The notes under the pieces: model-generated
What the model saw: the letters and a program-made list of their open reading frames with translations, nothing else
Told to the model about the DNA's origin: nothing
Database searches by the model: none
Program-made: the position numbers and the translations under genes
From: an uncultured bacterium
Lineage (GTDB): Bacteria > Bdellovibrionota > JACOXK01 > 2-02-FULL-40-11
Length of the DNA: 64,000 nucleotides
Assembly: GCA_964371555.1 (NCBI GenBank)
Contig: CAYJMQ010000004.1
Location: forward strand, 1,380 to 65,379
Direction: 5' to 3'
Part shown: in pieces, positions 13,554 through 45,978 of the stretch
Position numbering within the stretch: the first letter of the stretch is position 1
How the letters are laid out: each line of letters begins with the position of its first letter

Positions 13554-14057
13554 GTGCCATTTACGCCATACCATTTTGGCCCTGGCTTATTAATTAAAGC
13601 TGTTTTTCGAAGAAAATTCAGTTTAGGAATTTTTATTTTGGCTCAAATTCTTATTGATTTTGAGGTTATCTGGAATCTATTAAAAGGAAATGATCGGCTT
13701 CATACTTTTTTCCATTCGTATATCGGCTCTTGTGTCGTTATTATAATTGTTGTTATTTTTGCTTACTTTATCAGCCATTTTTTAGATAAATATATTTATT
13801 TAAAAAATTTGTTTTCAAAGTTTATACCGTTAGATTCAAAACCATTTTTTTTCTCAGCCATCATTGGAGCGTGGTCGCATGTTTTTTTAGATAGTTTGAT
13901 GCATGCTGATATGACGCCATTGTATCCATTTTTTGCCAATAATTTTTTACTGAATCGAATATCATTATTGTCCTTGCATTTGGGCTGCGTATTTTCAGGA
14001 GGAATAGGCGCCGTGATATGGGGGGTAACTAAATTTAGAGAATATAAACAGTCGTAG
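13554..14057 (+). CDS. Hypothetical polytopic membrane protein (His-rich, possibly a membrane-bound metal-dependent hydrolase of the YdjM/DUF457 type)
   Basis: It has about 4 hydrophobic helices. Conserved-looking His and Asp residues occur at helix ends (YHFGPG, HSYIG, WSHVFLDSLMHAD). The family call is tentative. Confidence 0.35.
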   Translation: MPFTPYHFGPGLLIKAVFRRKFSLGIFILAQILIDFEVIWNLLKGNDRLHTFFHSYIGSCVVIIIVVIFAYFISHFLDKYIYLKNLFSKFIPLDSKPFFFSAIIGAWSHVFLDSLMHADMTPLYPFFANNFLLNRISLLSLHLGCVFSGGIGAVIWGVTKFREYKQS

Positions 14058-16902: not shown

Positions 16903-17310
16903 CTAGATCTTCCCCTTTAGCCTAGCAAGCCATTGTGGAGGGAAAACAAAATAAAGAACCAGTATCAGCACACCGAATGCCAAGTAGGCGGTCTTAAACA
17001 CCCACGGCTCAAAATTATAATAAAGAAGCCTGCTCACCCAGTAGCTGATGAATGAGCCACCATAACCCTGCTTTCCGGCCATCAAACGGAGCTTCTCCTC
17101 CCAAGTCGTCCATGGACAAGCAATACCCAATAAAGTTTGCCCCATCATTATGCCAACTAAAAGAAGATGAATATTACGAAACCATGAATTCAGCACAAAC
17201 GACCACCTAAAAACCTTACCCATAAGAACAAGAGGAACTGGCACGATAATACAAAGAACATACAGAAAATGAATGACCAAAAGAAGATCAGCTAAGAACA
17301 GAAGTAACAT
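16903..17310 (-). CDS. Hypothetical small membrane protein (DUF2784-like)
   Basis: A 135-aa ORF with 4 predicted TM helices. An ACPWTTWE motif is typical of DUF2784 as I recall it. Confidence 0.4.
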   Translation of the reverse strand: MLLLFLADLLLVIHFLYVLCIIVPVPLVLMGKVFRWSFVLNSWFRNIHLLLVGIMMGQTLLGIACPWTTWEEKLRLMAGKQGYGGSFISYWVSRLLYYNFEPWVFKTAYLAFGVLILVLYFVFPPQWLARLKGKI

Positions 17311-17513: not shown

Positions 17514-18257
17514 TTATCTCCGAACTGGCTCTATATAATTTCGAAAGAGAATTCCTACCTTTTGCAGCGCAACCTCCATTGCAAATCGAATCATAAAGTT
17601 GGGGAGAACGCTTGAAATGTTTTCTGTTTCCATCTCACCCTGGAAAATGGCAAGTAATGAATCTTCTTTTTCTCTGTTTCTGGAAACACGATGCCCCATC
17701 TGAGTGGAAACCAGTGTGGGTCTTATTTTTTGAACCGTCATCGTTCCCCTAAATCCAACAAATCGCTCATTTTCAAATTTTAATCCAAGAGAATTCGCGG
17801 GGACAACTTGAAAATTGATAATCGTGCGGTCAATCAGTTTTTCCTCATGGATTTTCATAAGGCTCTCCACTTCATAATCGATCAATGCTGTTTTTAATGC
17901 TGATTTTATATGAATGTAGGTTCCCCCCGTCTTTATCTTTTTTAACGAGGAGGCCTTGATATATTTGGGCGCGATCTTCTCCAAAGATTCGTAATCAGTC
18001 ATAAATTTCGTAACCTGTTCCAGAGAAACATGGTGAAGTATTCCCCCGGCTTTGACAGAAAGCATGCGTAAATTTTCTTTTTCAGGATGCGTAAGGGTAT
18101 TTACAACACTGATGATCTCGCGATTCATCATCCTCTTTTGGATTTCTGCCCGATGATAAAAATCAATGGCGGGTTTTAAATCGAGGGGGCAAAAAAGAAT
18201 AAGGACAAGGCAACAAAAGAAAACAGTTCCCCACCATTTTCCATTGGCCGTTTTCAT
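17514..18257 (-). CDS. Hypothetical secreted protein
   Basis: It has an N-terminal signal or anchor, WWGTVFFCCLVLILFCPL. It is 247 aa. It is the last gene of the LMF-like operon and follows the EF-hand lipoprotein after a 93-bp gap. I recognise no family. Confidence 0.4.
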   Translation of the reverse strand: MKTANGKWWGTVFFCCLVLILFCPLDLKPAIDFYHRAEIQKRMMNREIISVVNTLTHPEKENLRMLSVKAGGILHHVSLEQVTKFMTDYESLEKIAPKYIKASSLKKIKTGGTYIHIKSALKTALIDYEVESLMKIHEEKLIDRTIINFQVVPANSLGLKFENERFVGFRGTMTVQKIRPTLVSTQMGHRVSRNREKEDSLLAIFQGEMETENISSVLPNFMIRFAMEVALQKVGILFRNYIEPVRR

Positions 18258-18350
18258 TATGATCTACTAGAACCTTACATTTCAAGTGTAGCAGATGTTG
18301 ACAAAACATTGCAAGAAGTCGCTGGCGCCCATTTCCTTAAGGACATGGGC

Positions 18351-20696
18351 TTACGGCTGTTTCAAATATCCCCTCATGACATGCGCGAGGAGACTCGCGA
18401 CTTTAAGGCGGTCAGACCCGATTTTTGAAGATGAAAAGAGAAGATCGGCGCTGAATTCCGGGAGTTTTCCAAATGAGAGAGAATATTCAAAAACACGTCT
18501 GTAGATTACTTTTTTATCTATAAACGGCATCAAAAAATTATTGAGTAAAATAGATAAGAACTTTCCAATGGCGCCAAAGACCGGAATTTTTCCTGCGGCG
18601 CCCGGCTGACTGTTATATTCATCAACTAATTTTTCAATGATCGGTTCAAAGTGTCTATACATCAATCGGATCTCACTTTTGTTTAGAGTTCCATCCTGAT
18701 CATTGTCAAAACGCAGAAAAAGATGTTCGATCGTTCGCACAATCATAAAGATTGCTGACAGCTCTTTCACAGAAATAATTTGAGGGTGATTCCTTCCAAT
18801 AAGCTGAACGATCGTTTCAATGTATTGAATGATGTCCTTTTCTGACATCACCTTCATGGCCACTGGAAAATACCACCGAAGCGTTGGAACCTTTTTAAGC
18901 GATTCCACAAGATTTTCTCTGAGCAAGCCGATCTCTTTTGAGTTTGGGAACTGATGGTGGAAGGGGATGACCTCATGATCCCAATAAAACCAGGTTACAG
19001 CCCGATTGTTTTCAAGAATAAAGCTCGTCGCTTCGATAATTTCATAACGATCGAGAGTGTTGTCGCCATTGCTGTTATAGAGCATCTGATCTGAAAGGAG
19101 CATAAGAATTTTTCCAAGTGTCTTGGTGTCCAAATCAAGCGGATTGGTCCAAATTCTTCGATGGGGGGTCAGATTCTCTTTTTTATCCCCTTCGGTGAGC
19201 ATGTCGAGTCCTTTCACAAGCCTCTGGAGGGTCGCCAGAAATGATGTGAGCTCTATATCTCCAATTTCAGCAGGGGAGCCGGGATCAAGCGGAACCATGG
19301 AGAGCTTTCCATCGCGGTTTTTATCATAGGCTGAAATGATGCGATCGATCGGCACAAACGCTGTCTGCGTGAGTGTAAAGGAATGCTTTCGAATGACCTC
19401 GGTTTTCTGAAAGGGGGTTGTCCAAAGATAGAGCGTCTTTGTGAAATCAGAAATCATCAGCTTAAATTTTTTCCTGATCTCCGGGGAGAGATTTCCGTCA
19501 TGAGCCTTAATCCATGCCGCTATTTCTTCTTTTTTGATTTCATAAATTTCCCCTGAAAAAGAAAAAAGGGAAGAGGCCTTTCCATAAATATCGATACTTT
19601 CATCAAAAATTTTAAGAAGCTCTTTAATTTCATCGCGACCCAAAACTTGAGGATTTCCCCCAAATAATTGCATTTTAAACTCAAAGACCGCGGTCACAAA
19701 TTCGCGAGCCTTTCCACCGATATGCGCGTGAAGAAGCTCAAGGAGTGTAATTAACTCCTCACGTTTTATTTCTGAAAGATTTTTATCAAAAAATGCCTTT
19801 AGCAATACCTGCAAAAGATATTGATAGGCATGAAGGAAACTAAGAGAGTCTTTGGATGTCCAGATCTCTTTCTCCAGATGCTGGTTGATTTGAGTGACCA
19901 GATGGTAGACCGATTCCAGATATGTTAAGAATTCTGGCATCTCACGGGCGACAACATTCTCTTCGCTCTCTCCAAAAAGCATACGATTGGCGAGATAGCC
20001 AGCCCGAATGTAGTGCGATCCGATCTCGTCTTCGAGCCCTTCCCAAAGCTGATATTGTCTGAGAAGGAGCTCTTTTGGAGTATCATGATCGATCAGACCG
20101 TGATTATTTTCAAACATCGCGCGGATCAGATCGATGTAACCGCTAAAGAGTCTTTTCCTCAGTTCCCAGTAGAGATCTTCTTTTTTATGGGTCTCTCTGT
20201 ATGAAAAAGAGAGCTTCGAAAGCCGGCTGATTTTTTGAGAGCCCCTCCTGACCCTTTTTATAACCTCTTCAATTTCAGAAAAACGGATTGAGTCCCCTCG
20301 TTCACCCAAAAGAAGATTACGCGCCGAAAAGAGGCGGTCGACCCAGATCTGAAGTTCCTCAGGATCACCGAGAATTTTTGAGTTGAGTAGTGTTTCTATT
20401 TCCCTTCTCGTGAGCTCCCCTTTTTTGCGTGGTTCAATTTGTTCATCGGCCTCATGGAGTATGGAGAGCAGACATTCTGTCGTTTGGCTAATTTCATTTT
20501 CACCCAGGGTTCCCATTTCAAAATGATTTTTAATTTTATCAAGATCGATTTGGCAGGAACCGTCGCTGAGGGCCGGATCATTTGTGAGGTCGAGCCGCTC
20601 TTTATTTGATCTGGGCGAAGGGGCTTTTTCTCCAACCCAGCCGCAGCCAGTTATCCACACAAACACAAGACTTAAAAGAAGATATTTAAAAAACAT
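18351..20696 (-). CDS. Large lipoprotein with EF-hand calcium-binding loops
   Basis: A 781-aa ORF. The lipobox is LVFVWITGC. There is a canonical EF-hand loop DNDQDGTLNKSE plus the further DxNxDG-like loops DKNRDGKLS and NGDNTLDRYE. It is mostly helical. It overlaps the upstream OMP gene by 11 nt. Confidence 0.5.
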   Translation of the reverse strand: MFFKYLLLSLVFVWITGCGWVGEKAPSPRSNKERLDLTNDPALSDGSCQIDLDKIKNHFEMGTLGENEISQTTECLLSILHEADEQIEPRKKGELTRREIETLLNSKILGDPEELQIWVDRLFSARNLLLGERGDSIRFSEIEEVIKRVRRGSQKISRLSKLSFSYRETHKKEDLYWELRKRLFSGYIDLIRAMFENNHGLIDHDTPKELLLRQYQLWEGLEDEIGSHYIRAGYLANRMLFGESEENVVAREMPEFLTYLESVYHLVTQINQHLEKEIWTSKDSLSFLHAYQYLLQVLLKAFFDKNLSEIKREELITLLELLHAHIGGKAREFVTAVFEFKMQLFGGNPQVLGRDEIKELLKIFDESIDIYGKASSLFSFSGEIYEIKKEEIAAWIKAHDGNLSPEIRKKFKLMISDFTKTLYLWTTPFQKTEVIRKHSFTLTQTAFVPIDRIISAYDKNRDGKLSMVPLDPGSPAEIGDIELTSFLATLQRLVKGLDMLTEGDKKENLTPHRRIWTNPLDLDTKTLGKILMLLSDQMLYNSNGDNTLDRYEIIEATSFILENNRAVTWFYWDHEVIPFHHQFPNSKEIGLLRENLVESLKKVPTLRWYFPVAMKVMSEKDIIQYIETIVQLIGRNHPQIISVKELSAIFMIVRTIEHLFLRFDNDQDGTLNKSEIRLMYRHFEPIIEKLVDEYNSQPGAAGKIPVFGAIGKFLSILLNNFLMPFIDKKVIYRRVFEYSLSFGKLPEFSADLLFSSSKIGSDRLKVASLLAHVMRGYLKQP

Positions 20697-22062
20697 AACT
20701 CCCCTTCATCCAGATCCGATCATTGGCGCGAAACATCCCCCAATAGGTCTGCTCTTCGCCGGAGATGACATCAAAACCGATACCAAATTTCATCTGTGTA
20801 AAAGGTCCCAGAGCGACTTCCCCCCGCAGCTGCCTCTGTCTCATAGAAAGATCTGTTTCACAAGAAAGGGAAAATTGAGAAGCAGCCGATGGCCGTAGAG
20901 CTATTTTTGAAAACAACGTTTGTTCGGGGTGGCTGGGGAGAGGGGAGGGGGGGATCGCGGCATCCCTCAAATTTTTCGTAAATAGGGCGGCCACAGTCCA
21001 CTCAGGGAGCCAGCGACGGTTTGTTTTCATCTGAACCCCTGTCATATTTTTTAATGCCGATTCGCGATCGACATAAACCCCATCGTAAAAAAAATCGATA
21101 TCCCAAAAGATTTTGCTCTGGATGATGTTCACCCCAGACTGGAAACCGATCATCTGCTCCCGAATAAATTCGGGATAAAGATGAACCATCGCCTCTAATA
21201 ATGACTCATCTTTAATATGAAGTTTAGCGTTATGACGAAGAGTCGGCTCAGGATTGAGATAAGCGGCCCCCAGAGCGGCAAAACGGATCCGTTCTGTCTG
21301 TAAAGAAATCCGCAGCCATCCCCCTTGATTCAATACGACATTTTTGGCTGATGGGAGATGAAGCGAATAATCGATAGGAATCACCGCATCCCCCACTTTT
21401 ATTTCTTCAAAAAGAGGGGGGAGCCAGCGGGAAACAGAACTGAGATGCTCATCTGAAGTTTTTTCAAACCGAATCCCCCCCCTGTTTGGAATAAACAGCG
21501 GTGAAAAGAAAAGTTCAATTTGGAAGATGGGGCGCTGATAGGAACCAAGAATTCCAACGATTCCATCGGTGATGTTCGTTAATGGATCAATCACAAATTT
21601 TGGAAACATTTTTTGAAGCGGCCCCCCGCACATTGTATCGATATCCCGCTTTGCCCAGTCTGGAAGGATTCTTCCAATTCGCAGGTTTAAATTTTTTGAA
21701 TTTAAGCCTGCAAATATTTCTCGAACATCAAACCAGTCTGATGTCTGCTGCGGAATGACCCCCCAGAGATCTACGGAGAGTCCATACTGAAACCATGCCG
21801 GTCTTTTCTTCGATTTGTGCGATAAATTCAGATGATACCTCGACTCCAGTTGATTATTGAGGTGTATGGATGAATAGGCAAGCGCCATCGCCTCCGCCTC
21901 GAGAGTCTGTGAATAAATCGTACCCCCGATACCAATGACACCCAAGATATAAAGAAGAAGAGAAAGAAAGAATACCGTTCGAGACAACACCCTTATCACG
22001 AACGGAGTTGTAGCACAGTCCTTTGCCCTATCCAATAAAAAGTAATTTAATTCCCCGTCCAC
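20686..22062 (-). CDS. Putative outer-membrane beta-barrel protein
   Basis: A 458-aa ORF. It has an internal signal-like segment VFFLSLLLYILGVIGIGGTIYSQTLEAEA, so the true start is probably downstream of the ORF-track M. Amphipathic beta patterning runs throughout. The C-terminus ...WMKGSYVF ends in Phe. It abuts the upstream gene. Confidence 0.45.
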   Translation of the reverse strand: MDGELNYFLLDRAKDCATTPFVIRVLSRTVFFLSLLLYILGVIGIGGTIYSQTLEAEAMALAYSSIHLNNQLESRYHLNLSHKSKKRPAWFQYGLSVDLWGVIPQQTSDWFDVREIFAGLNSKNLNLRIGRILPDWAKRDIDTMCGGPLQKMFPKFVIDPLTNITDGIVGILGSYQRPIFQIELFFSPLFIPNRGGIRFEKTSDEHLSSVSRWLPPLFEEIKVGDAVIPIDYSLHLPSAKNVVLNQGGWLRISLQTERIRFAALGAAYLNPEPTLRHNAKLHIKDESLLEAMVHLYPEFIREQMIGFQSGVNIIQSKIFWDIDFFYDGVYVDRESALKNMTGVQMKTNRRWLPEWTVAALFTKNLRDAAIPPSPLPSHPEQTLFSKIALRPSAASQFSLSCETDLSMRQRQLRGEVALGPFTQMKFGIGFDVISGEEQTYWGMFRANDRIWMKGSYVF

Positions 22063-24012
22063 TCATGAAGGTCGATCAGGTTTCTTATCAATTACAACGG
22101 GTGTGACGGGGAGGGTTGCTTTCAAGGTACGCCTCCACCAGGCGCGGGTATTCTTTTTGGTCTTTAGATCGGTAAAATGATATTCGTAGAATTGGATGCG
22201 TAAATATTTGGGTGGTTTTCCCTCAAAGGGATTTTTTTCAAGAAGGGAGATGACATCGGGAGTCCCTTGATAAAGACGCATGAGGAAGTTTTGAAACCAA
22301 AACGACTGCTGAAAATTTTGAAGCGGCAAAAACCACATCTGCCAGTCAAGGCGCGGCTGGTGCGGGGCCACAAAAGAAGGCCGGCGTTTGATGTCCCCCG
22401 GTTTGTATTTAAATTCATAAGCGAGCCAGTTTTTATTGTCATAGCTCCCTTCAAGAACGATTTCATTTCGTTCTGTCGTCATCACGGCAAAAAGCCCATA
22501 GCTATTCACAAGATGGAAGGTCTGCGCGACAGCAATCATTTTTTTAAGCGGGGAGGGAATACGCCTTGAAAAATGCGCAATCATGAAGGTACTTGAAACA
22601 ATCAGAACAAAAAGGGCGATGACCGCAATCAAAGATTGTCTACGGAGAGAGGCCGGAATTTTTTTCGGCTCTCTTTGAGAAAACCACCGTTTAAAACAGG
22701 TGTCGTCCAAAAGCAAAAAAGAAAGGGCGATCGTAAGCCAGTTGAAATAGGTGTAGTTACCCGTGAGGATGATTATCATCTGGAAAATCACAAGCCCGGC
22801 AAAACCGAAAAATTTGAGCCTTCTTGGAAAAAAGATCAAAAACGGGAGAAACAATTCGGACGCGAACATAAAACCACAGGAGACTTTGTCAAACCATTCG
22901 GGGAGCTGATGAACATACCAGGCGATCGGGGTGGGGAGCGGCTGCGTCTCATAGTGATAGTTCAGCGCTGTGAACGAATGCCATGTCGGATCGGCGCTGG
23001 TCAGCTTTACAACCCCTGAACTAAAGACGAGCCTGAAAAGAAGCCAACGGAGAAGAAAATGAATCAGATGCGATGGAATCACAAACTGTTTCCAGCGGGA
23101 TCTGATTTGAGAATGAAATAAGAAAATGGAAAGAAAGCCTGTTTCCAAGAGCAGGGCATCCCACTGAAACCGCATGAATTCGCCGCCCGCTATCGTTAAA
23201 GAAAGATAAAACACCCAGAGAAGCCATAGGGAAATTGTCGGCGCAAATCCTAAAAAGAGAATGATCGATAGAATAACGCCCCCCATCGATAGAAAGTCGA
23301 GAAAGAAGTTGGTCGGGCTAAGCCACGCAAGTGTTGGAAACCAAAAGTAGGCCGAGGATCCCACGTGGGTTTTGATCGCTTTTAAGAGAAGTTCAACAGG
23401 AAGTATCCCATCTGCGCCGATGAGCCCCCGGATCTGAATCCAGAGCGAGAAAAAAGCAATTCCATAGATGATGGCAAGGGCTTTGACAAACAGCCAGCTT
23501 GAAAAAAGATAGGTCGGCGGCTCAACTGTTTTTCCCCAAAAGAGCGTCGTTAATTTTGAAAAAAGCGGTCGATGGTTTGCAATGAACCGGTAAATCGATT
23601 CCGTTACAAACGAAGCCCCCGGAATATTTTTATAACACCAAAACATCCATTTTCTTCCACGGGCATAAGAGAGCGATTTAAAGACGGCCGCGGCTCCGCT
23701 ATAAATGGTTCCATCCGTTTCGACAAACTGCACGGAAGATTTGAACTGGTCTTTCGTAATTTTTGTAAATTGAGCCAAAACGTCCTGAAACGGCGCGTAT
23801 GCGACCGCATCGCCTGTCATCTTTTTCCAACGCTCAATCCAGAGGCGGCAAAATCCGCACTGACCATCGTAGATCATCCACGGGCACGGGTGGGTTCGCA
23901 TACCGGTTTCAAGTCTAATAAAAACGATCGCAAAAGACCAGATTTCTGTGAGATAGGGAGGGAATATGGATATAAACAAAGAATATGCCCTCGCAACAGA
24001 GCGGGCGGGCAT
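22063..24012 (-). CDS. Fusion protein: N-terminal DUF393/DCC-family thiol-disulfide oxidoreductase domain plus lipase maturation factor (LMF1)-like polytopic membrane domain
   Basis: The CPWMIYDGQCGFCRLWIERW motif is the DCC1-like Cys pair. It is followed by more than 8 TM helices and a C-terminal soluble region, the architecture of bacterial LMF homologues. The likely start is MRTHPC at 23904. Confidence 0.5.
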   Translation of the reverse strand: MPARSVARAYSLFISIFPPYLTEIWSFAIVFIRLETGMRTHPCPWMIYDGQCGFCRLWIERWKKMTGDAVAYAPFQDVLAQFTKITKDQFKSSVQFVETDGTIYSGAAAVFKSLSYARGRKWMFWCYKNIPGASFVTESIYRFIANHRPLFSKLTTLFWGKTVEPPTYLFSSWLFVKALAIIYGIAFFSLWIQIRGLIGADGILPVELLLKAIKTHVGSSAYFWFPTLAWLSPTNFFLDFLSMGGVILSIILFLGFAPTISLWLLWVFYLSLTIAGGEFMRFQWDALLLETGFLSIFLFHSQIRSRWKQFVIPSHLIHFLLRWLLFRLVFSSGVVKLTSADPTWHSFTALNYHYETQPLPTPIAWYVHQLPEWFDKVSCGFMFASELFLPFLIFFPRRLKFFGFAGLVIFQMIIILTGNYTYFNWLTIALSFLLLDDTCFKRWFSQREPKKIPASLRRQSLIAVIALFVLIVSSTFMIAHFSRRIPSPLKKMIAVAQTFHLVNSYGLFAVMTTERNEIVLEGSYDNKNWLAYEFKYKPGDIKRRPSFVAPHQPRLDWQMWFLPLQNFQQSFWFQNFLMRLYQGTPDVISLLEKNPFEGKPPKYLRIQFYEYHFTDLKTKKNTRAWWRRTLKATLPVTPVVIDKKPDRPS

Positions 24013-37627: not shown

Positions 37628-38902
37628 TCATCGTCCGACCATTGCCAGAATATCTGCTCGAGCAAGATGATAATTCTTTCGTAGTTCCGAATATCTTTTC
37701 TTATATTCGATATATTTTTGCGTTGCGCTAAGAACATCTGGAGAGTTTTTAACACCTCTCTTATATTCGCCCAGTGTTCGATCGAAATAAAGTTTCCCTA
37801 ACTTCAAGTTTTTCTCCCCAATATGAACAAGCTCGTGAATGACTTTTAATTCTGATTTCATTGCCTCAAAACGAGCTTCTAATTCTTTTTGACGTTGAAG
37901 AGAAAGACTCTCAAATGCCATGGCTTGAAGACCTGCGGCAGCGCCTTCTGCTTTAGATTGAAAACCATCAAAAATATCAAGAGTTACTTTAATCCCGCCA
38001 ACAGTTTCATATCGAGCATTCCGTGTGGCTGCTTCTCGTTCTCTCTGCGTATACAAAAAATACCCCGCATAACCATCAATACTGGGAGTCCACCAACGAT
38101 AAAATTGTTTTTTTTGAAATTCAAAAGCTTCTTGATTTGCTTTTAATTGTAAAATTTCTCGATGAGAATTAATTAAATCCGCCTTTAAAGCCAAAAGGCC
38201 CTCATCGTGCTGATGTGGAGCGGCATCAATAGTTTCAAGATTTGTCTCTGGAGACAATCCCAATACAGCGTTTAACTCACGTTGAAAATTAGAAGACATC
38301 AATTCAGCCTGTCTCAAGTCTTGTTCAAGTTGAATTTTATTGATTTCAAACTCAATTCTGTCTGTAAGGGTTGCTAAGCCTGCTTGAATACGTTTTTCAG
38401 AAGCTCCTTTATTTTTTTCATTAAGATCTAGCGCTTCTTTAAAAATGTTTTGTGTCTCTTTTTGGAAAACTAAATTCCAATAAATTCCTCTTGCCTTCGT
38501 TAATTCCTCAAAATATATTTTTTGCTGTTCCTGCTGAGAAGCATTCAACTGTTTTTCTCGGACAGATCCTTCTAATGAATCCCGCCCCCCTTTAAAAAGA
38601 TTTATTTTTGTCTCAATTCCTCCAAAGGGTTGTTGCCTGGTGTCGCCAAATTCCCCGGATTTGAATGATTCCCCTCCAACTGAAACACCTAACGTAGGAA
38701 GATAAGACCGCAAAAGATACCCTGTGCGAGCTTCTCCCGATTGAACTGAAAAAGTGGCTCCCTGAACACTTTTATTTTTTTCTTTTACAAGGCTTGGTAA
38801 ATCTTCAAAGTTAATTTTAAGAGCGGTGGTTCCCGTTCCTCTTGAAGGAACCACCGCAATTGTTAAAATAATAATTTTAATAAATGATTTTTTATTCAAC
38901 AT
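37628..38902 (-). CDS. Outer-membrane efflux factor (TolC/CzcC family)
   Basis: It has a signal peptide. It is 424 aa with a duplicated helical/beta architecture. It is the last gene of the RND operon. Confidence 0.65.
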   Translation of the reverse strand: MLNKKSFIKIIILTIAVVPSRGTGTTALKINFEDLPSLVKEKNKSVQGATFSVQSGEARTGYLLRSYLPTLGVSVGGESFKSGEFGDTRQQPFGGIETKINLFKGGRDSLEGSVREKQLNASQQEQQKIYFEELTKARGIYWNLVFQKETQNIFKEALDLNEKNKGASEKRIQAGLATLTDRIEFEINKIQLEQDLRQAELMSSNFQRELNAVLGLSPETNLETIDAAPHQHDEGLLALKADLINSHREILQLKANQEAFEFQKKQFYRWWTPSIDGYAGYFLYTQREREAATRNARYETVGGIKVTLDIFDGFQSKAEGAAAGLQAMAFESLSLQRQKELEARFEAMKSELKVIHELVHIGEKNLKLGKLYFDRTLGEYKRGVKNSPDVLSATQKYIEYKKRYSELRKNYHLARADILAMVGR

Positions 38903-38906
38903 ATTT

Positions 38907-39323
38907 TTAATTTTGAGGAGGCTCTACCTGAAAAGTAACTGTCTCCTTTTTGCCTTTATAATCTACGATAAGTTCTAAGAGATATCTATGGGTACCTTTG
39001 ATTTGAGGTTTTGCTTCAAAGTGATCGTTGACAATATCTAATTTAATCGTTTGTTTTTTCTTTTTTGGTATCTGCACGGCTGCCACAATAGAAATATCTT
39101 TAAGAGATATAGGAGAGAGTTTATGGGTTAAAGGGTAGAGCTTTATCCCGGATGAATCATTCACAAGCTCGATATAAAGCAGGGTTACCCCTTTCACTGT
39201 TCCTCCATGAGGAGCTTGAATGGCGCCAGGGAGAACATCGTGTCCTTCATGTGCTTGAACAAAATCCCAGGACGTTATTAATCCCAGGATGAAAAAAGTT
39301 AAAATAAGATATCGATATTTCAT
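38907..39323 (-). CDS. Small periplasmic His-containing protein (candidate metal-binding accessory protein)
   Basis: A 138-aa ORF with a signal peptide. The mature protein begins HEGHDVLPGAIQAPHGG. It is wedged between the RND pump and the OMF. It overlaps the pump stop by 4 nt. It resembles neither an MFP nor CusF by eye. Confidence 0.4.
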   Translation of the reverse strand: MKYRYLILTFFILGLITSWDFVQAHEGHDVLPGAIQAPHGGTVKGVTLLYIELVNDSSGIKLYPLTHKLSPISLKDISIVAAVQIPKKKKQTIKLDIVNDHFEAKPQIKGTHRYLLELIVDYKGKKETVTFQVEPPQN

Positions 39324-42300
39324 GTGTCATGACCTCCTTCGATAACAGGTTTTTGATAAGTTGCAGCTCTTTCAGCCGATTTTCTTCCAAAATGGAAGAA
39401 GACTGTTGGGGTTACAATCATATCCAAAAGAGTGGAGCTAAAAAGTCCCCCCACAATAACAACAGCAACCGGGTGCAAAATTTCTTTACCAGCTTGTCCT
39501 TTAGCCAGAACAAAAGGAATAAGCGCTAACATGGCTGTCAATGCTGTCATTAAGACAGGGACAAGTCGTTCAAGAGAACCTCGAATGACCATCTGTCTAG
39601 AAAAATTTTCACCTTCATGTTTCATGAGATGAAGATAATGAGAAATCATCATAATGCCATTTCGGCTGGCAATGCCGCAAAGCGTAATAAAGGCTACCAA
39701 TGTTGCTACGGACAAAATGCGAGAAGAAAGAAAAATAGCAATAAGGCTCCCAATTAAAGCCATGGGAATATTAAGCATAATTTGGATGGCAATAAAGCTG
39801 GATTTGAAATGTCCATACAAAACCAGAAATATACCTAAGAGAGAAAGGATGCCCAAAAAAGTAATGAGTTTTGAAGCTTTTTGCTGACTTTCAAATTGAC
39901 CTCCAAAATTAATAAAATAACCATCAGGTAATTTTATATTTTTGCTGATTTTAGATTTTATATCTTGAATTAAACTATCTAAGTCTCGACCGGATGCGTT
40001 GGCTTGAACCACGATTCTTCTTTGAACGTTTTCTCGATTGATAATATTTGGGCCTGTCGATTCATATACATCAGCTACCTCTTCCAAAGTTACCCGTGTA
40101 CCATCGGGCATAATTTTTATAAGTGTTTTTTTCATAAGTTCAATGTTAGAACGGGAACTGTCATCAAATCTCATAAATACATTAAAAAATCTTTGGTTCT
40201 CCAAAGTATAGGCTACAATTTCACCATGTAATGCCATCTCAAGCATCGATGCAAGACTACCCAGAACAATGCCATATTTGGCTGCTTCTTCTCTTAATAA
40301 CTGAATTTTTACTTGAGGGATGAGCACCTGTTGCTCTATTTGCAGGTCAACCAATCCCCGGGTACCTTCAATGGCCTTGTGAATTTCAGCTGCCTTGTTT
40401 CTTAATGTCGTTAGATCTGTTCCGAAAATCTTAATCGCAATTTGAGCACGAACCCCTGACAGCAAATGATCTAATCTGTGGGATATTGGCTGGCCAATAT
40501 TTACATAAATGCCAGAAATGGTGGTTAATTTTTCTCGAATGTCATTTAAAACAGCTTCTCGAGATCGATGAGATTTGGCCTTAAAATCGACATCGATTTC
40601 AGAATAATGGACACCTTCAGCATGTTCATCCATTTCTGCGCGTCCTGTTCTCCTGGCAACTGATTTCACCTCAGAAACACTTAAAATAAGTTGTTCAGCC
40701 TGGGTACCAATTTTATTACTTTCTTCAAGAGAAATACCCGGATTTGCTAAGACAGTAATGGTAGCTGTGCCTTCGTTGAATTTAGGCAAAAATTCTTTTC
40801 CCATAAATAAAATTAATGTCAATGAGGCAAGAAAGAGTATGCCTAACCCACCCATCACAATTTTGGGATGGTCTAGCCCCCAATTGAGAAATTTTTCATC
40901 CCAATATTTTAAAAAGCGCACAAACCATCCTTCATCTCGCTCCATGAGTTTGCCTTTGGTTAAAAGATAGGAACAAAGAGCAGGGGTTAGGGTTAAAGAT
41001 ACGATGAGAGAAGCTACTAAAGAAACACTATAAGCAATTCCTAATGGAATAAAAAGCCTTCCTTCTATTCCACTTAAATAAAAGAGAGGAAGAAAAACAA
41101 GAACAACAATAATGGTCGCAAAAACAATAGAGTTTCTTACTTCGGAAGAAGCATTATAAATAACTTCTAAAACGGGCAAAGGTTTTCCCAGTTTTTTATT
41201 TTCTCTAAGCCTGCGAAAAATATTTTCTACATCCACAATAGCATCATCTACCAATTCACCGATCGCAACAGCTAATCCGCCTAATGTCATCGTGTTTACC
41301 GTAATGCCAAAAAGTTTCATCACAATGGCAGTTATGACAAAAGAGAGAGGAATGGCTGTGAGGGTAATCATTGTTGTCCGAAAATTAAGTAAGAAAATAA
41401 AAAGTACGATGATGACAAGAATAGCGCCATCCCGCAGTGCTTCTTCGACATTATGAATGGCAGCTTCAATAAAGTGGGATTGCTTAAATAAGTCCTTTTC
41501 TAATTTAACATCGCTTGAAAATCCTTTTGCAATTTCATCGAGCGCTTTATCAATACGCTTTGTGAGCTCTACCGTATTTGCTCCAGGTTGTTTTTGAATA
41601 CTCAATATAACAGCCGGTTTGGCATTGACACTTCCATCTCCTCTTTTAATTTGAGCGCCAATTTTAACTTGAGCGACATCTTGAACAAGTTTTGGAACAC
41701 CAAAATGCAGCCCCACCACTGAATTAAGAATATCTTCTTCTGAACGAACCATTCCAATATTTCTTATTAGAAATTCTTTCTTCTCCTGATCAATAAATCC
41801 ACCGGTTGTATTTTGACTTAAATGGGTCAGCGAGTGTTCAATGTCTTCCAGGGTTAATTGAAAATTTTGAATTTTTTCCGCAGAAAGTAAAATTTGATAT
41901 TGCCGCACACCTCCTCCGATAGCAATCACTTGTGCAACACCGGGAATACTTAGAAGCCTTGGACGAATCACCCAATCTGCCAATGTTCTAAGTTCGAGAG
42001 GAGAAATTTCTCCTTTTTCAGAAATTAAACCAAGAAGCTGTATTTCCCCCATAATGGAAGCAATGGGCCCCATTACCGGGATTGCATTCTTTGGTAATTT
42101 TTCTTTTGCAAGTTGAAGTTTTTCAGATACAAGTTGTCTATTTCTATAAATATCCGTTCCCCAGTCAAACTCGACATAAACAACAGAAAGACCAATCCCG
42201 GAAGAAGAACGCACACGTTGAACACCTGGCAATCCATTTAAAACCGTTTCAAGTTGAAGAGTAACCAAAGTCTCTACTTCTTCAGGAGCCATCCCTGGCG

Positions 42301-42457
42301 CTTCAGTTAAAATAGTTACTGTGGGGCGATTTAAATCAGGGAATACATCTACAGGCAGATGCATCAGTACATAGGTGCCGTAAACCAGCAAAAAAGCTGC
42401 GCTAGAGACAACAAAAAGTCGATTGGTCAAAGAAAAACGAATAATTTTATTAAGCAT
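39320..42457 (-). CDS. Heavy-metal efflux RND transporter (CusA/CzcA family)
   Basis: A 1045-aa ORF with 12 TM helices and two large periplasmic loops. The N-terminus MLNKIIRFSLTNRLFVVSSAAFLLVYGTYVLMHLPVDVFPDLNRPTV aligns with CusA/CzcA. Confidence 0.8.
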   Translation of the reverse strand: MLNKIIRFSLTNRLFVVSSAAFLLVYGTYVLMHLPVDVFPDLNRPTVTILTEAPGMAPEEVETLVTLQLETVLNGLPGVQRVRSSSGIGLSVVYVEFDWGTDIYRNRQLVSEKLQLAKEKLPKNAIPVMGPIASIMGEIQLLGLISEKGEISPLELRTLADWVIRPRLLSIPGVAQVIAIGGGVRQYQILLSAEKIQNFQLTLEDIEHSLTHLSQNTTGGFIDQEKKEFLIRNIGMVRSEEDILNSVVGLHFGVPKLVQDVAQVKIGAQIKRGDGSVNAKPAVILSIQKQPGANTVELTKRIDKALDEIAKGFSSDVKLEKDLFKQSHFIEAAIHNVEEALRDGAILVIIVLFIFLLNFRTTMITLTAIPLSFVITAIVMKLFGITVNTMTLGGLAVAIGELVDDAIVDVENIFRRLRENKKLGKPLPVLEVIYNASSEVRNSIVFATIIVVLVFLPLFYLSGIEGRLFIPLGIAYSVSLVASLIVSLTLTPALCSYLLTKGKLMERDEGWFVRFLKYWDEKFLNWGLDHPKIVMGGLGILFLASLTLILFMGKEFLPKFNEGTATITVLANPGISLEESNKIGTQAEQLILSVSEVKSVARRTGRAEMDEHAEGVHYSEIDVDFKAKSHRSREAVLNDIREKLTTISGIYVNIGQPISHRLDHLLSGVRAQIAIKIFGTDLTTLRNKAAEIHKAIEGTRGLVDLQIEQQVLIPQVKIQLLREEAAKYGIVLGSLASMLEMALHGEIVAYTLENQRFFNVFMRFDDSSRSNIELMKKTLIKIMPDGTRVTLEEVADVYESTGPNIINRENVQRRIVVQANASGRDLDSLIQDIKSKISKNIKLPDGYFINFGGQFESQQKASKLITFLGILSLLGIFLVLYGHFKSSFIAIQIMLNIPMALIGSLIAIFLSSRILSVATLVAFITLCGIASRNGIMMISHYLHLMKHEGENFSRQMVIRGSLERLVPVLMTALTAMLALIPFVLAKGQAGKEILHPVAVVIVGGLFSSTLLDMIVTPTVFFHFGRKSAERAATYQKPVIEGGHDT

Positions 42458-42477
42458 TTTCTTGTATTTTAAATCTC

Positions 42478-42870
42478 TTATTCGAGACGGCTCGAAACCA
42501 ACCGTATAAGCTCGTCAATTTTTTCTTCGATTTTAACCTTATTATTTTCTTTCATGGTCATTCGTACACAACTTCGAATATGTTGTTTTAAAATGGCCAT
42601 TTCAATAAACTTAAGTCCCGCTGCGACGGCTTTAAATTGAATTAGGATATCGACACAATATCTCCGTTCTAAAATCATGTTTTCGATACCGCTCATCTGC
42701 CCTTTGACTTTGCTCAAGCGTGAAAGAAGTGATGTGTAATCAGGATGGTTTTTAGATGGGTCAGTGGGCACAGTTGCATCCTGGCAATGTTTACACTTTT
42801 TATGCGAATCACCTCCTAAAATTACATTTTCCATATATAGAATTCTCCTTTCTCTCTTTCTTATTGACAT
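42478..42870 (-). CDS. CsoR/RcnR/FrmR-family metal-sensing transcriptional repressor with an N-terminal Cys/His-rich extension
   Basis: The core is KVKGQMSGIENMILERRYCVDILIQFKAVAAGLKFIEMAILKQHIRSCV, which is the DUF156 signature with the conserved Cys and His ligands. The extension is HKKCKHCQD. The likely start is MENV at 42834. Confidence 0.75.
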   Translation of the reverse strand: MSIRKRERRILYMENVILGGDSHKKCKHCQDATVPTDPSKNHPDYTSLLSRLSKVKGQMSGIENMILERRYCVDILIQFKAVAAGLKFIEMAILKQHIRSCVRMTMKENNKVKIEEKIDELIRLVSSRLE

Positions 42871-42896
42871 ATACCCTATGGGGGGTATATGTCAAT
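42865..42896. promoter_or_regulatory. Palindromic operator embedded in divergent sigma70-like promoters
   Basis: TTGACATATACCC-TATGGG-GGGTATATGTCAA. The 13-bp arms are perfect. The ATACCC...GGGGTAT core resembles the B. subtilis CsoR operator. TTGACA -35 boxes lie on both strands, each about 16-17 nt from a TATATG -10-like hexamer. Confidence 0.55.
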
Positions 42897-43055
42897 AAAA
42901 CAATAAGAAATGAAGAGAGAGATCATGAAAAAATCAAAGGGGATTATATTTTACGTATTTGCCACACTCCCTCAGAGTTTTATGCTATGGAAACAGGTCA
43001 GGTGTTATGTTATGGCCCTGACGGTGGAATTTGACTTTTTGGAAGGGGGATATTT

Positions 43056-43733
43056 ATGATACGACATATTTTTTTAGGAACCTGGATCATAGGTTCATTG
43101 CTTATACTAGGGTGCCAAGATGAAGATCAATCGTTTAAAGAGTTACAAAAAAAGACTGGAAAATTTGGTATGGAAGGCGAGTTTGAAGCAGAAAATGAAA
43201 GGGCCATTAAAATGGAAGAGGATCTTTCCAGAAGACATCATTTTTATCAGTCCTTAAAAGGAACGTATGAAGGAACTCTTCAAGAAGAAGGCGGAAGTTT
43301 TAATTTAAGAATTACTTTTGCTCCTAGTCTTCCACCATATCCGAAAGATCCTAGTCGCATTAGAACTATTGAGGAAATAACATCAGATCTTACAAATTTG
43401 TATTTTAATGTACAAGTCATTCAATGGAGTCCTCAAAATCCTCTAACTTCTGTAGGATGTCGGGTAGAAGGGGTCAGACCAGATATGATTACAGGAGAAG
43501 TTTTTATCTCTTCAGAAATTTGTCCCAATTTTTATGCTCTTCTTTTATCTGATGCCACCTCTCAAGATAGCATAGGAACATTAAACAATAATCAAGAGAA
43601 AGAACTTGCAACAAGCCTTGCTCAAGCCATTATTGAAGGTCAACTCACAACGGTTTCTCAAATTCAAGGTCAAGTACGTCCTACGACAAATGCTGCTATT
43701 TATGAGTTTATCGCAAAAAGGGTTGAGATGTGA
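43056..43733 (+). CDS. Hypothetical lipoprotein
   Basis: The lipobox is LLILGCQ. It is 225 aa. It is the first gene of the divergent operon. I recognise no family. Confidence 0.45.
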   Translation: MIRHIFLGTWIIGSLLILGCQDEDQSFKELQKKTGKFGMEGEFEAENERAIKMEEDLSRRHHFYQSLKGTYEGTLQEEGGSFNLRITFAPSLPPYPKDPSRIRTIEEITSDLTNLYFNVQVIQWSPQNPLTSVGCRVEGVRPDMITGEVFISSEICPNFYALLLSDATSQDSIGTLNNNQEKELATSLAQAIIEGQLTTVSQIQGQVRPTTNAAIYEFIAKRVEM

Positions 43734-45004
43734 AGAATATCCTTAATGCTTTTTTTATTTTCTTCTTTTCTTTATTTTCTTTGGAATCTTTGGCTTCATC
43801 TGACTCTTTAACTATCTCTCTTGAAGAGATTACTCAAAAAATAAGTACAGAAAATTATCTGGTTTTAGAAAATGCCCAGCGTGTTTATCAGGCAAAAGAA
43901 GCCATCGAAGTTTCGAGAGGAAATCTTCTTCCTCATCTTAACTTTTGGAAAGTAGCTGCAATCACTTTTGAACCGATGGCAGCTATTGGCATGGTTGAAG
44001 ATATAGCTCCCTTTTTGGTACCTGCAAATTGGTTTAGAGTTAAAGAACAAGAGATACTTTATTTGGCTACTCAAGAATCTTATCGAGCTCTCTGGGCCAA
44101 TGAATTGATGACTGGTCGAAATCTCTATTTTAAAATTTTGTTTGATGAAATTCTTTTGGAAAAAATTCAGGAAAATAAAAATCTAATTAATCAAATTTTG
44201 AATATTTCAAAAATGCGAGAGAAATTAGGCGGACAAAGGCAAACTATTTCTCAAGATATTGAGGTAAGAGTTTTAGCCCTCCAGGAAGATATTCGATCTT
44301 TAGAAGTTTTAATCAATGAGGAACTTAATTCTCTTTCTTATTTGATGGGACATGCAAGTGAGGTGGAAATTAAACCACAACCCATTGATCTTCCCGAATT
44401 TGAAAATTTTGAACCGTTGAATTACACAGATTTTGAATTTAGAGTGCTAGATACAGCTCCTGAATTGAGACAGATGGAATATTTAGTGAAGGTAGCTGAC
44501 TTGGTTAAAAAAGAAGAAGAGTTTTCATTTTTAGGGGGATCGAATTTAAGTCGAGGCGTTGCAGGAGGAGTTTTTGATGGACTTCCAATGGGTGTAGGAG
44601 GGCTTGGATTTGGGCTTGCCCCTGCAATTCGTGTGGCTAAGGCGCAAAAAGAAATTTTAAAAATTCAAAAAAGAGGAATCGAAGAGGTTCTTAAAAGGCA
44701 ACTTAAAAATTTAGTCAATAATTATAATTTAGACTTAGAAAATCATGTGAATTTAAAAAGACGCTCAGAGCTTACAAAAAATATTTTAGACAACCTCTTT
44801 AGAAGATTAACCTTGGGAGAAGAAATAGAAGTTTTAGATCTTGTGGAAGCTTCAAGAAATTATATTCAAGCATCCAGTTCCTTTTTTGCCATCAATTATC
44901 GTTTTTTAGCCAATGAAGATAAGCTTTCACGTCTTATTTTTCATGGAGACTATGATAAAAAGCCAGCCGGTTTAGAAGAAGTAGAAAAGAGAAGCAAAGA
45001 ATAA
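43730..45004 (+). CDS. Outer-membrane efflux protein-like (TolC-family) protein
   Basis: It has a signal peptide. It is 424 aa. The N-terminal LTISLEEITQKISTENYLVLENAQRV is the OMF helix signature, and the repeat halves are duplicated. It overlaps the upstream stop by 4 nt. Confidence 0.5.
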   Translation: MKNILNAFFIFFFSLFSLESLASSDSLTISLEEITQKISTENYLVLENAQRVYQAKEAIEVSRGNLLPHLNFWKVAAITFEPMAAIGMVEDIAPFLVPANWFRVKEQEILYLATQESYRALWANELMTGRNLYFKILFDEILLEKIQENKNLINQILNISKMREKLGGQRQTISQDIEVRVLALQEDIRSLEVLINEELNSLSYLMGHASEVEIKPQPIDLPEFENFEPLNYTDFEFRVLDTAPELRQMEYLVKVADLVKKEEEFSFLGGSNLSRGVAGGVFDGLPMGVGGLGFGLAPAIRVAKAQKEILKIQKRGIEEVLKRQLKNLVNNYNLDLENHVNLKRRSELTKNILDNLFRRLTLGEEIEVLDLVEASRNYIQASSSFFAINYRFLANEDKLSRLIFHGDYDKKPAGLEEVEKRSKE

Positions 45005-45472: not shown

Positions 45473-45494
45473 ATGTGAAATATCACATGTTACA

Positions 45495-45857: not shown

Positions 45858-45978
45858 AATTTCCGCGATTAAGTCCAGTCAACTTCCATGTAGTTTTTTG
45901 CGATGAGTGATTTTTAAATGACACAACTCCTATTTTTTGCTTGTCATGAGAACAGCGCTTTTCTATACTCCGCTTGAG

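Follow-up and report, generated by a model that had tools for sequence, protein, structure and literature searches.

A DCC-LMF1 gene beside a lineage-restricted cassette for a putative outer-membrane barrel and an EF-hand lipoprotein: probably two independent units

Four minus-strand genes lie close together in a 64,000-nt stretch of DNA from an uncultured bacterium of the Bdellovibrionota (contig CAYJMQ010000004.1; the whole stretch is called the window here). They encode a DCC-LMF1 membrane protein, a putative outer-membrane beta-barrel protein, a 781-aa EF-hand lipoprotein and a 247-aa protein, and were originally predicted to form one self-contained system for maturation or export. Are the four genes coupled in this way, or do they stand side by side? 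Our analysis indicates that they are probably two independent units, the DCC-LMF1 gene (22063-23901) and a three-gene cassette (17514-22054).

Gene calls and the DCC-LMF1 protein

The open reading frames of all four genes were present where the original prediction placed them, and all four proteins have homologues at 44-88% identity, indicating that these are real genes. The window also encodes BamB, a TolC-like OEP and AcrB, which marks the organism as a diderm. The longest open reading frame of gene 1 (22063-24012, minus strand) has 649 aa; because almost all of the homologues listed are 597-650 aa long and their alignment begins at Met38, the true start is almost certainly this residue (ATG 23901, 612 aa), which also abolishes the overlap with a divergent GCV_T/YgfZ-like gene at 23966. 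The longest reading frame of gene 2 (20686-22062, minus strand, 458 aa, GTG) had suggested an abutment with gene 1 at 22063/22062. This proved to be an artefact of the longest-ORF choice: the homologues begin with MIRVLF..., which corresponds to GTG 21999 in the window and to starts at 8253 and 5882 in the related loci L004 and L089, respectively. The start at GTG 21999 therefore leaves a 63-nt gap to gene 1, mostly occupied by a conserved non-coding element. The 11-nt overlap predicted between genes 2 and 3 is real and recurs in related loci, and the 93-nt gap ahead of the last gene, encoding the 247-aa protein, was correctly placed.

With its revised start, gene 1 (22063-23901, minus strand) encodes a polytopic membrane protein with at least five hydrophobic helices. 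Pfam searches showed that a DCC1-like domain (PF04134, aa 47-151 of the long ORF, E 2e-12), an LMF1 domain (PF06762, 22690-23175, minus strand, aa 280-441, E 1.1e-58, 198 bits) and an LMF1_C domain (PF25179, 22120-22512, minus strand, aa 501-631, E 8.6e-52) all lie above the cut-offs, confirming the predicted fusion of a DUF393 CxxC domain to LMF1. The CxxC motif of the DCC domain (C-G-F-C, 23848-23859, minus strand) contains C15 and C18, the sole invariant cysteines of the protein among 16 sequences from many phyla. Since the protein appears to have no signal peptide, its N-terminal DCC-type CxxC thiol-disulfide oxidoreductase domain would be cytoplasmic, and LMF1_C would face the periplasm by analogy with the topology of eukaryotic LMF1.

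The DCC-LMF1 fusion matched more than 5,330 database proteins, and all 120 of these matches that were listed combine PF04134, PF06762 and PF25179. Species-representative genomes, spanning about a dozen phyla, contained more than 600 matching stretches, and the family outnumbers that of the lipoprotein by more than 600 to 1. Within 8 kb of DCC-LMF1, no homologue of the barrel candidate, the lipoprotein or the 247-aa protein was found in 80 sampled loci from other phyla. Nor did a conserved neighbour emerge across the sampled loci: the biggest neighbour cluster, shadow ORFs aside, covers 14 of 82 loci, and a same-strand ORF lies at most 150 nt downstream in only 27 of 78, a heterogeneous set. 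By domain content and neighbourhood, gene 1 is typical of a widespread bacterial LMF1 family and usually stands alone, suggesting that its product most likely serves general envelope redox or protein maturation, not one dedicated cargo.

Synteny and upstream element of the three-gene cassette

The three cassette families are small, with 8, 4 and 4 relatives. We compared the only nine related loci found, mostly on short contigs, in which absence of LMF1 means that no LMF1 gene lies upstream of the cassette at the locus. The barrel candidate and lipoprotein genes are adjacent in all eight loci where both are readable. The 11-nt overlap of barrel stop and lipoprotein start (..TATGTTTTTTAA.., 20686-20696, minus strand) is shared by L001, L002, L004, L086, L088 and L089, so that it occurs in seven of eight loci with the window included; L003 is the sole related locus that shows the junction without it. 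The 247-aa gene lies downstream of the lipoprotein gene in the window, L004, L002, L088, L086 and L087, and is absent from L001 and L003. These results support the predicted grouping of the barrel candidate and the lipoprotein, with the 247-aa protein in closer relatives, as one unit; on sequence grounds, the three genes are a rare, lineage-restricted orphan cassette.

An LMF1 gene stands upstream of the cassette in two of the seven loci with a readable upstream gene, namely the window and its closest relative L004. L002 and L088 keep the GCV_T flank and are missing LMF1, and different genes lie upstream in L089, L001 and L003. L089 is 87% identical to L004, yet its upstream gene differs, and the homology between the two begins at L089:5829 and L004:8200, right where the intergenic region starts.

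Directly upstream of the barrel gene we found a conserved non-coding element of about 55 nt (22000-22054, minus strand), composed of an A/T-rich tract, then TTGGAT (22035-22030), a 17-nt spacer with TGC at its end, and TACAAC (22012-22007). Among the window, L004 and L089, ungapped pairwise identity over -45 to -1 is 60-93% in three bins of 15 nt, and the sequences upstream of about -60 are unrelated. The gene ahead of the element in L089 is not LMF1; the element is conserved whatever gene stands upstream and travels with the barrel gene. It was found once in the window, against 0.05 chance matches expected, and was left unflagged by a promoter scan. We infer, as our own reading, that the element is a promoter or 5' element belonging to the cassette. 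Its -10-like hexamer ends just 7 nt ahead of the GTG, so a promoter would imply a leaderless GUG start.

A local link could still have arisen recently if, in the sublineage of the window and L004 only, LMF1 was inserted upstream of the cassette and is now co-transcribed and co-regulated with it, a functional link that would not be ancestral. The adjacency is kept in these two genomes although their DNA has diverged by about 20%, the gaps measure just 63 nt in the window and 47 nt in L004, and LMF1 seems to have been inserted, or deleted, as one gene, since L002 and L088 have GCV_T next to the cassette. No terminator-like site was found between the four genes, and this, with the shared strand and short gaps in the window and L004, makes read-through co-transcription possible in this sublineage. 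However, L089 is without the adjacency despite its closeness to L004, the persistence of the element between LMF1 and the barrel gene argues for the cassette's own control, and an insertion signature was looked for around LMF1 and none was found. We consider this recruitment unlikely.

Proteins of the cassette and their proposed coupling

The product of gene 2 (20686-21999, minus strand, 437 aa), a member of an orphan family, had been predicted as an outer-membrane barrel, which is plausible but unproven. It has a signal-peptide-like N-terminus with no further hydrophobic or TM helix, the beta moment exceeds the alpha moment in 62% of windows versus 41% in the lipoprotein, and it ends in a conserved ...Y-V-F, whose aromatic motif Y-x-F/L is invariant in seven homologues. 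The AlphaFold (AF2) model is unusable, at pLDDT 31, and no Pfam, NCBIfam or PDB sequence match was found. It is quite unlikely that the 437-aa protein is no barrel and that the cassette proteins are instead periplasmic or associated with the inner membrane, such as a periplasmic Ca2+ sensor or buffer module. EfhP offers a precedent for bacterial periplasmic EF-hand Ca2+ sensors (PMC9132961), and the failed model and lack of an OMP family match fit such a reading; the signal-like N-terminus, beta-amphipathic composition and invariant C-terminal motif argue against it, as do the roughly 20 short strands that even the poor, beta-rich model contains.

The 781-aa protein (18351-20696, minus strand) was confirmed as an EF-hand lipoprotein by a conserved lipobox (I-T-G-C, aa 15-18, 20643-20654, minus strand; G-C kept in all six homologues with an N-terminus) and one canonical loop, DNDQDGTLNKSE (aa 664-675, 18672-18707, minus strand). 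This loop fits PROSITE PS00018, whose regex matches six of eight family members, and the Pfam EF-hand_1 call is marginal (26.6 bits vs a cut-off of 25.4). A second loop, NSNGDNTLDRYE (aa 541-552, 19041-19076, minus strand), has N at position 1, and its N543, D545, L548, D549 and E552 are invariant in eight sequences; a third, DKNRDGKLSMVP (aa 458-469, 19290-19325, minus strand), is without the position-12 Glu, and its D458, D462, L465 and S466 are invariant. The structure model shows an all-alpha protein of repeated helix/beta-bridge/helix units behind a long N-terminal tether, disordered in the model (aa 19-47). The protein comprises about ten EF-hand-like helix-loop-helix units, of which one is canonical, two have partial Ca2+ loops and the rest are degenerate. 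There are also two conserved N-terminal cysteines, a pair that could in principle be a substrate for an envelope redox factor.

The 247-aa protein (17514-18257, minus strand) belongs to an orphan family with only 4 representatives among 1.84 billion, and has no Pfam or PDB match. Its single N-terminal hydrophobic segment makes the predicted secretion plausible, but by manual reading of the alignment the -3/-1 positions are poorly conserved, suggesting that the protein may be an uncleaved anchor.

For the cassette as a unit with its own 5' element, the conserved 11-nt overlap would give coupled, roughly equimolar synthesis of barrel and lipoprotein, which points to the two proteins forming a complex in the outer membrane. 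The barrel might anchor, expose or be capped by the lipoprotein, the conformation or partner binding of the complex may respond to Ca2+, and the exported 247-aa protein would complete the cassette in closer relatives. That DCC-LMF1 belongs to one dedicated envelope system, maturing the lipoprotein and/or the 247-aa protein by folding or disulfides for export by the barrel, is very unlikely and already largely refuted by synteny: the shared strand and closeness of the genes in the window and L004, the lack of terminator-like sites, the two lipoprotein cysteines and the literature tying eukaryotic LMF1 to redox and disulfide formation in the ER (PMC7197872, PMC12781119) would favour it, but the four genes are not co-conserved, an outcome that the original prediction had named as refuting it, with LMF1 missing upstream in five of seven readable loci (two of them GCV_T-flanked, one 87% identical to L004), no partner genes in 80 LMF1 loci, the disparity in family size and the cassette's own element against it, and the supposed lipid-acting cargo is not supported either, as domain searches detected a lipase or esterase domain in none of the four proteins.

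Comparison with known systems

Gene 1 shares its three-domain architecture, approximate length and invariant CxxC with the bacterial lipase maturation factor family. Its product is 48-53% identical to proteins of the family in Dadabacteria, Acidobacteria, Elusimicrobia, Zixibacteria, Verrucomicrobia, Planctomycetes and others, and shows no feature that sets it apart. The family is named in databases, where some JGI records label the fusion 'predicted DCC family thiol-disulfide oxidoreductase YuxK', and experimental work on a bacterial member did not turn up in a literature search. Eukaryotic LMF1 (ER lipase maturation factor 1) has the LMF1 and LMF1_C domains in common with it and has been discussed as contributing to ER redox homeostasis and as a candidate transmembrane conduit of reducing equivalents (PMC7197872, PMC12781119), which agrees with the joining of a CxxC oxidoreductase domain to LMF1 in bacteria. 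In contrast to it, the bacterial protein has a DCC domain added at its N-terminus, lacks invariant cysteines beyond the CxxC, and has no evident lipase client or conserved partner gene.

The cassette resembles several barrel-lipoprotein pairs. TbpB and other known Slam substrates are beta-rich in fold, whereas the cassette lipoprotein is all-alpha and EF-hand-like, with putative surface exposure; the long N-terminal tether is a likeness to Slam systems. In Slam (DUF560 barrel), as here for a putative barrel, an outer-membrane barrel gene adjoins a large-lipoprotein gene, an adjacency that serves to predict Slam substrates (PMC7857515), but searches matched neither DUF560 nor TPR in the barrel candidate. 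SusC/SusD and TbpA/TbpB follow the same logic of a barrel working with a neighbour-encoded partner lipoprotein, and the helical lid of SusD is a further likeness. The barrel candidate differs from SusC and TbpA in having only 437 aa and no Plug or TonB-dependent receptor domain, and the lipoprotein is without homology to TbpB or to SusD.

EfhP (PA4107) of Pseudomonas aeruginosa is much smaller than 781 aa and is not known to be a lipoprotein. Like the cassette lipoprotein, it is an exported cell-envelope protein with canonical EF-hand loop(s), two EF hands being reported and a periplasmic location predicted (PMC9132961). No sequence homology between the two was detected, and the 781-aa protein differs in that it is a lipoprotein, has about ten EF-hand-like units, only one of them canonical, and is encoded by a gene that appears translationally coupled to that of the barrel candidate. 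All told, the locus comprises a typical member of the widespread LMF1 family next to an orphan cassette restricted to its lineage.

Gene models and junctions

The ORF list of the window contained the four minus-strand genes at the coordinates originally predicted: gene 1 (LMF1; longest ORF 22063-24012, 649 aa), gene 2 (the barrel candidate BAR; longest ORF 20686-22062, 458 aa, GTG), gene 3 (the lipoprotein LIP; 18351-20696, 781 aa) and gene 4 (SEC; 17514-18257, 247 aa). Among the 120 homologues of gene 1 listed, nearly all were 597-650 aa long, and their alignments began at Met38 of the long ORF, so we take its real start to be the ATG at 23901 (612 aa). With this start, gene 1 no longer overlaps the divergent GCV_T/YgfZ-like gene at 23966. 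The homologues of gene 2 start with MIRVLF, which places the start of BAR at GTG 21999 (window), GTG 8253 (L004, the closest relative) and GTG 5882 (the related locus L089). The abutment of genes 1 and 2 at 22063/22062 is thus an ORF-extension artefact, and the true gap is 63 nt. The predicted overlap of genes 2 and 3 proved to be real, and the same 11-nt overlap (..TATGTTTTTTAA..) was found in six related loci (L001, L002, L004, L086, L088 and L089). At L003 (3638-3800, 3686-5869), a gap lies between BAR and LIP in place of the overlap, and its LIP homologue, the most diverged one, has neither signal peptide nor lipobox; a frameshift, a mis-assembly or genuine variation may explain this difference.

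A GC-rich hairpin (GCCCAUGUCCUUAAGGAAAUGGGC) lies directly 3' of the LIP stop codon (18258-18350, minus strand). It has no U-tract and is therefore not a classical terminator, and it is not universal, because the corresponding gap at L088 is only 29 nt. The whole LIP-SEC gap folded with a z-score of -2.2 compared to shuffled sequences. A DUF2784 membrane protein is encoded 203 nt downstream of the cassette (BAR, LIP and SEC) at 16903-17310 (minus strand) and is not syntenic in the relatives. Elsewhere in the window, we found a YdjM/DUF4184-like membrane protein (13554-14057, plus strand), an M6 InhA-like secreted metallopeptidase (61488-63821, minus strand) and, by Rfam scan, two tRNAs only. 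The GC content of the stretch 38000-46000 is 0.34-0.38, compared to about 0.45 elsewhere, and RND efflux genes lie within it; this stretch may be an acquired island. The efflux genes encode an AcrB-type pump (39320-42457, minus strand) and two TolC-like OEP proteins (37628-38902, minus strand, and 43730-45004, plus strand).

Synteny of LMF1 and the cassette

The synteny set consisted of the fetchable contigs carrying any cassette gene, on which all genes were mapped by tblastn. Read along the cassette strand, the gene order is FeS, GCV_T(-), LMF1, BAR, LIP, SEC in both the window and L004, whose LMF1 is 88% identical. The same flank without LMF1 precedes the cassette at L002 (FeS, GCV_T(-), BAR, LIP, SEC; LIP 64%) and at L088 (GCV_T(-), BAR, LIP, SEC; LIP 60%). 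At L001 (LIP 44%), a HEAT-repeat protein is followed by BAR, LIP and then opposite-strand genes, and at L003 (LIP 44%) the gene upstream of BAR is Lgt, prolipoprotein diacylglyceryl transferase, with an unrelated 272-aa protein after LIP. The upstream gene was not readable at L086 (BAR, which is cut, LIP, SEC) and L087 (LIP, SEC). The decisive locus against LMF1 coupling is L089, where a 1431-aa orphan without LMF1 precedes BAR and LIP, the latter cut by the contig end. L089 and L004 share 87% DNA identity across 1,520 nt, beginning at L089:5829 and L004:8200; the homology begins at the first bases past each upstream stop codon, and the DNA farther upstream is unrelated. The orphan of L089 (1539-5834) has a signal peptide, no Pfam domain and a 47-nt gap to the cassette, and no counterpart of it was found in the window or the other fetched loci.

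The reverse comparison started from the DCC-LMF1 fusion. A scan of species-representative genomes gave at least 600 matching stretches, from which 80 loci in about a dozen phyla were kept. After the neighbouring ORFs were clustered by all-against-all BLAST, the biggest cluster, LMF1 shadow ORFs aside, was a generic sigma-54-type AAA+ regulator present at 14 of 82 loci. A same-strand ORF lies within 150 nt downstream of the fusion at 27 of 78 loci, and these ORFs are mutually unrelated, so DCC-LMF1 is normally a stand-alone gene. Flanking repeats or a target-site duplication that would mark LMF1 as an insertion were also sought, and only short repeats at chance level were found.

The original prediction joined all four genes in one self-contained, LMF1-centred maturation or export system and named their co-conservation among its tests. 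Of the 7 loci whose upstream gene was readable, 2 have LMF1 in front of the cassette, while the BAR-LIP pair is present at all 8 readable loci and SEC at 6 of 8; conversely, BAR, LIP or SEC homologues were found within the 8-kb flanks of none of the 80 DCC-LMF1 loci of other phyla. The four genes are thus not co-conserved. The original observation holds in part: its domain calls are correct, and the proposed system is not supported; synteny makes LMF1 a neighbour of the cassette rather than its partner.

Directly 5' of BAR, we found a non-coding element of about 55 nt in the window (22000-22054, minus strand), L004 (8206-8252) and L089 (5835-5881), which is kept although the upstream gene of L089 differs. 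Over positions -45 to -1, taken in 15-nt bins, ungapped pairwise identity among these three loci is 60-93%, and in the first 15 nt of the BAR ORF it is 93-100%. The BAR proteins of the window and L004/L089 are about 62% identical, and the element is far better conserved than the adjoining coding sequence. In the element, an A/T-rich tract is followed by TTGGAT and TACAAC, which are 17 nt apart with TGC at the end of the spacer, and this combination occurs once in the window compared to 0.05 times expected by chance. From this layout, we infer that the element may be the cassette's own promoter (UP-element, -35 and extended -10) with a near-leaderless GUG start. A promoter scan of the window did not list it, and only a weak structure was predicted for its RNA (RNAalifold -6.8 kcal/mol; single-sequence z -1.3).

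Read-through from LMF1 into the cassette is a possible alternative for the sublineage of the window and L004, where the four genes would be co-transcribed. It agrees with the finding of no terminator-like site between them; however, the conserved promoter-like element sits in the gap between LMF1 and BAR. The best-supported reading is that two units stand side by side, Unit A (LMF1) and Unit B (the cassette). An LMF1-centred machine as proposed would have offered a genetic handle on LMF1 function, and the comparative data remove this handle.

Sequence features of the encoded proteins

The domain calls predicted for gene 1 all exceeded the curated Pfam cut-offs: a DCC1-like thiol-disulfide oxidoreductase domain (PF04134, formerly DUF393; aa 47-151, E 2e-12, 48.7 bits against a cut-off of 27.8), LMF1 (PF06762; aa 280-441, E 1e-58, 198.3 bits against a gathering score of 27) and LMF1_C (PF25179; aa 501-631, E 9e-52, 175.3 bits against a gathering score of 34.2). 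The protein is polytopic, with at least five hydrophobic segments in a Kyte-Doolittle scan. The CxxC motif is C-G-F-C (23848-23859), and both residues are invariant in 16 aligned DCC-LMF1 homologues from many phyla, forming the sole invariant cysteine pair; in the membrane and C-terminal domains, invariant W/Q/D/E/R/H residues are numerous instead (FQWDxLLLE, RLDWQMW). This pattern argues against a DsbD-like cysteine relay across the membrane and against a simple multi-cysteine relay through it. The family gave more than 5,330 significant matches in databases, and all 120 matches listed have the same three domains at about 50% identity; Dadabacteria, Acidobacteria, Elusimicrobia and Zixibacteria are among their sources. 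The name "lipase maturation factor family protein" is already in use for this family at NCBI. No lipase gene was found in the neighbourhood of gene 1 by ORF list and Pfam, and a literature search for bacterial LMF1/DCC fusions found no relevant paper. A search of LMF1 against PDB sequences returned nothing, and hence LMF1 has no relative of solved structure. Eukaryotic LMF1 is treated as an ER redox factor in the literature (PMC7197872, PMC12781119), and this points to a general role of DCC-LMF1 in redox or maturation processes of the envelope. Conversely, a DCC(CxxC)-LMF1 fusion fixed in thousands of bacteria of many phyla lends independent support to the redox-related view of the eukaryotic protein. 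Unit A is best regarded as a routine member of this widespread bacterial family, and nothing links it to a specific client.

Gene 2 was predicted to encode an outer-membrane beta-barrel, and the organism is diderm, since the window encodes BamB, a TolC-like OEP protein and AcrB. The N-terminus of BAR is signal-peptide-like in all homologues, and the hydrophobic segment there (aa 10-28) is the only one in the protein. BAR shows beta-type amphipathicity in 62% of windows, compared to 41% for the lipoprotein, and its C-terminus reads ...Y-V-F (Y-E-L in L003) with an invariant Y435. BAR therefore has the sequence features of an outer-membrane beta-barrel (a signal peptide, an aromatic beta-signal at the C-terminus and no TM helix in between), whereas the closed fold is putative: the AF2 model, built on a 4-sequence alignment, was beta-rich yet unusable (pLDDT 30.8). 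Pfam and NCBIfam assigned the window BAR (458-aa ORF) to no family, and PADLOC found nothing. Pfam searches of 7 family members at E <= 10 gave only noise, with one Porin_O_P match at E 0.11, and a profile search of the BAR alignment against PDB sequences gave nothing meaningful. A word-indexed search found 4 relatives. Amino acid identity between the window and L004 is 63% for BAR, 75% for LIP, 80% for SEC and 88% for LMF1; the greater divergence of BAR would fit a surface-exposed protein under diversifying pressure.

The assignment of gene 3 as a lipoprotein is supported by a lipobox, I-T-G-C (aa 15-18), which matches the pattern [LVI][ASTVI][GAS]C and whose G-C is kept in the 6 homologues that have the N-terminus. 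The canonical EF-hand loop was likewise found: the 12-residue DNDQDGTLNKSEI / DNDQDGTLNKSE (aa 664-675) matches PROSITE PS00018, a match that 6 of the 8 family members retain, and Pfam EF-hand_1 gave a marginal match (26.6 bits against a cut-off of 25.4), with EF-hand_5, EF-hand_6 and EF-hand_7 below their cut-offs. Two partial Ca2+ loops, NSNGDNTLDRYE (aa 541-552) and DKNRDGKLSMVP (aa 458-469), carry invariant ligand-type residues. The LIP model (pLDDT 67, pTM 0.67) is all-alpha, with about 30 residues past the lipidated Cys disordered. EF-hands come in pairs connected by a short beta-bridge. In the DSSP assignment of the LIP model, short strands that may be such bridges stand directly before helices at 94-96/136-138, 309-311/351-353 and 464-466/547-549, and the sequence at these sites carries the signature of an EF-hand exit helix (..LTRREIETLL, ..IRFSEIEEVI, ..IKREELITLL, ..LGRDEIKELL). 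Foldseek of the model matched multi-EF-hand proteins at E >= 0.16, and a profile search of the LIP alignment against PDB sequences gave nothing meaningful. Two cysteines, aa 48 and 75 (20472-20555; SCQID ... EC), are kept in all 6 homologues covering the region and may form a disulfide in the exported protein. The family has 8 relatives among 5.8 billion clusters.

The SEC protein, predicted to be secreted, has one N-terminal hydrophobic segment; judged by eye from the aligned -3/-1 positions, its cleavage site is weak, and hence the segment may either be cleaved off as a signal or stay as an anchor. Among 1.84 billion representatives scanned exhaustively with HMMER, 4 belong to the family. 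No family was assigned by Pfam (including a family-wide search at E <= 10, which gave only noise) or NCBIfam, the sole PADLOC match, to CARF3 at E 0.0047, is at noise level, and a profile search of the alignment against PDB sequences found no relative of known fold. An SRPBCC/START-like lipid-binding fold was set aside as unproven: hhalign gave probabilities of 0.16% against a Bet v 1 and 0.11% against a RatA-like reference sequence, although both alignments fell on the same DYESLEKIAP motif.

The cassette and known outer-membrane systems

The BAR-LIP pair is the invariant core of Unit B, and its two proteins are probably produced by coupled translation. In the simplest reading, they would form a 1:1 outer-membrane complex, in which LIP would be Ca2+-responsive and multi-EF-hand-like. 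A more specific proposal, which we consider improbable, is that this translationally coupled pair, under its own conserved 5' element, represents a new type of outer-membrane complex outside the Slam and TonB classes. Its dedicated barrel of about 16-20 strands would display or gate the giant multi-EF-hand LIP, a module switched by Ca2+ at the surface or in the periplasm, with SEC as an accessory or client. If true, this would be the first case of an outer-membrane system with a polymeric EF-hand lipoprotein at its centre. Two metagenome scans (LIP and BAR as seeds) and tblastn against plasmids added no further cassette loci. The cassette of BAR and a multi-EF-hand LIP is a true orphan limited to a small uncultivated lineage, one relative of which is recorded as "Deltaproteobacteria bacterium". 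Its rarity limits its general importance, and the residual novelty is that of a rare orphan barrel-lipoprotein cassette, which may be a new outer-membrane pair.

Unit B is similar in logic to the Slam/surface-lipoprotein and SusCD/TbpAB pairs (PMC7857515), but lacks their defining sequence features. The DUF560 barrel domain and N-terminal TPR of Slam were not found by Pfam in 7 BAR family members. Pfam and NCBIfam gave no match to the Plug/TonB-dependent receptor or SusD-like families of the SusC/SusD type, and BAR is only 437 aa long. The nearest characterised envelope EF-hand protein is EfhP, reported with only two EF hands and a predicted periplasmic location (PMC9132961), whereas LIP is multi-EF-hand-like.
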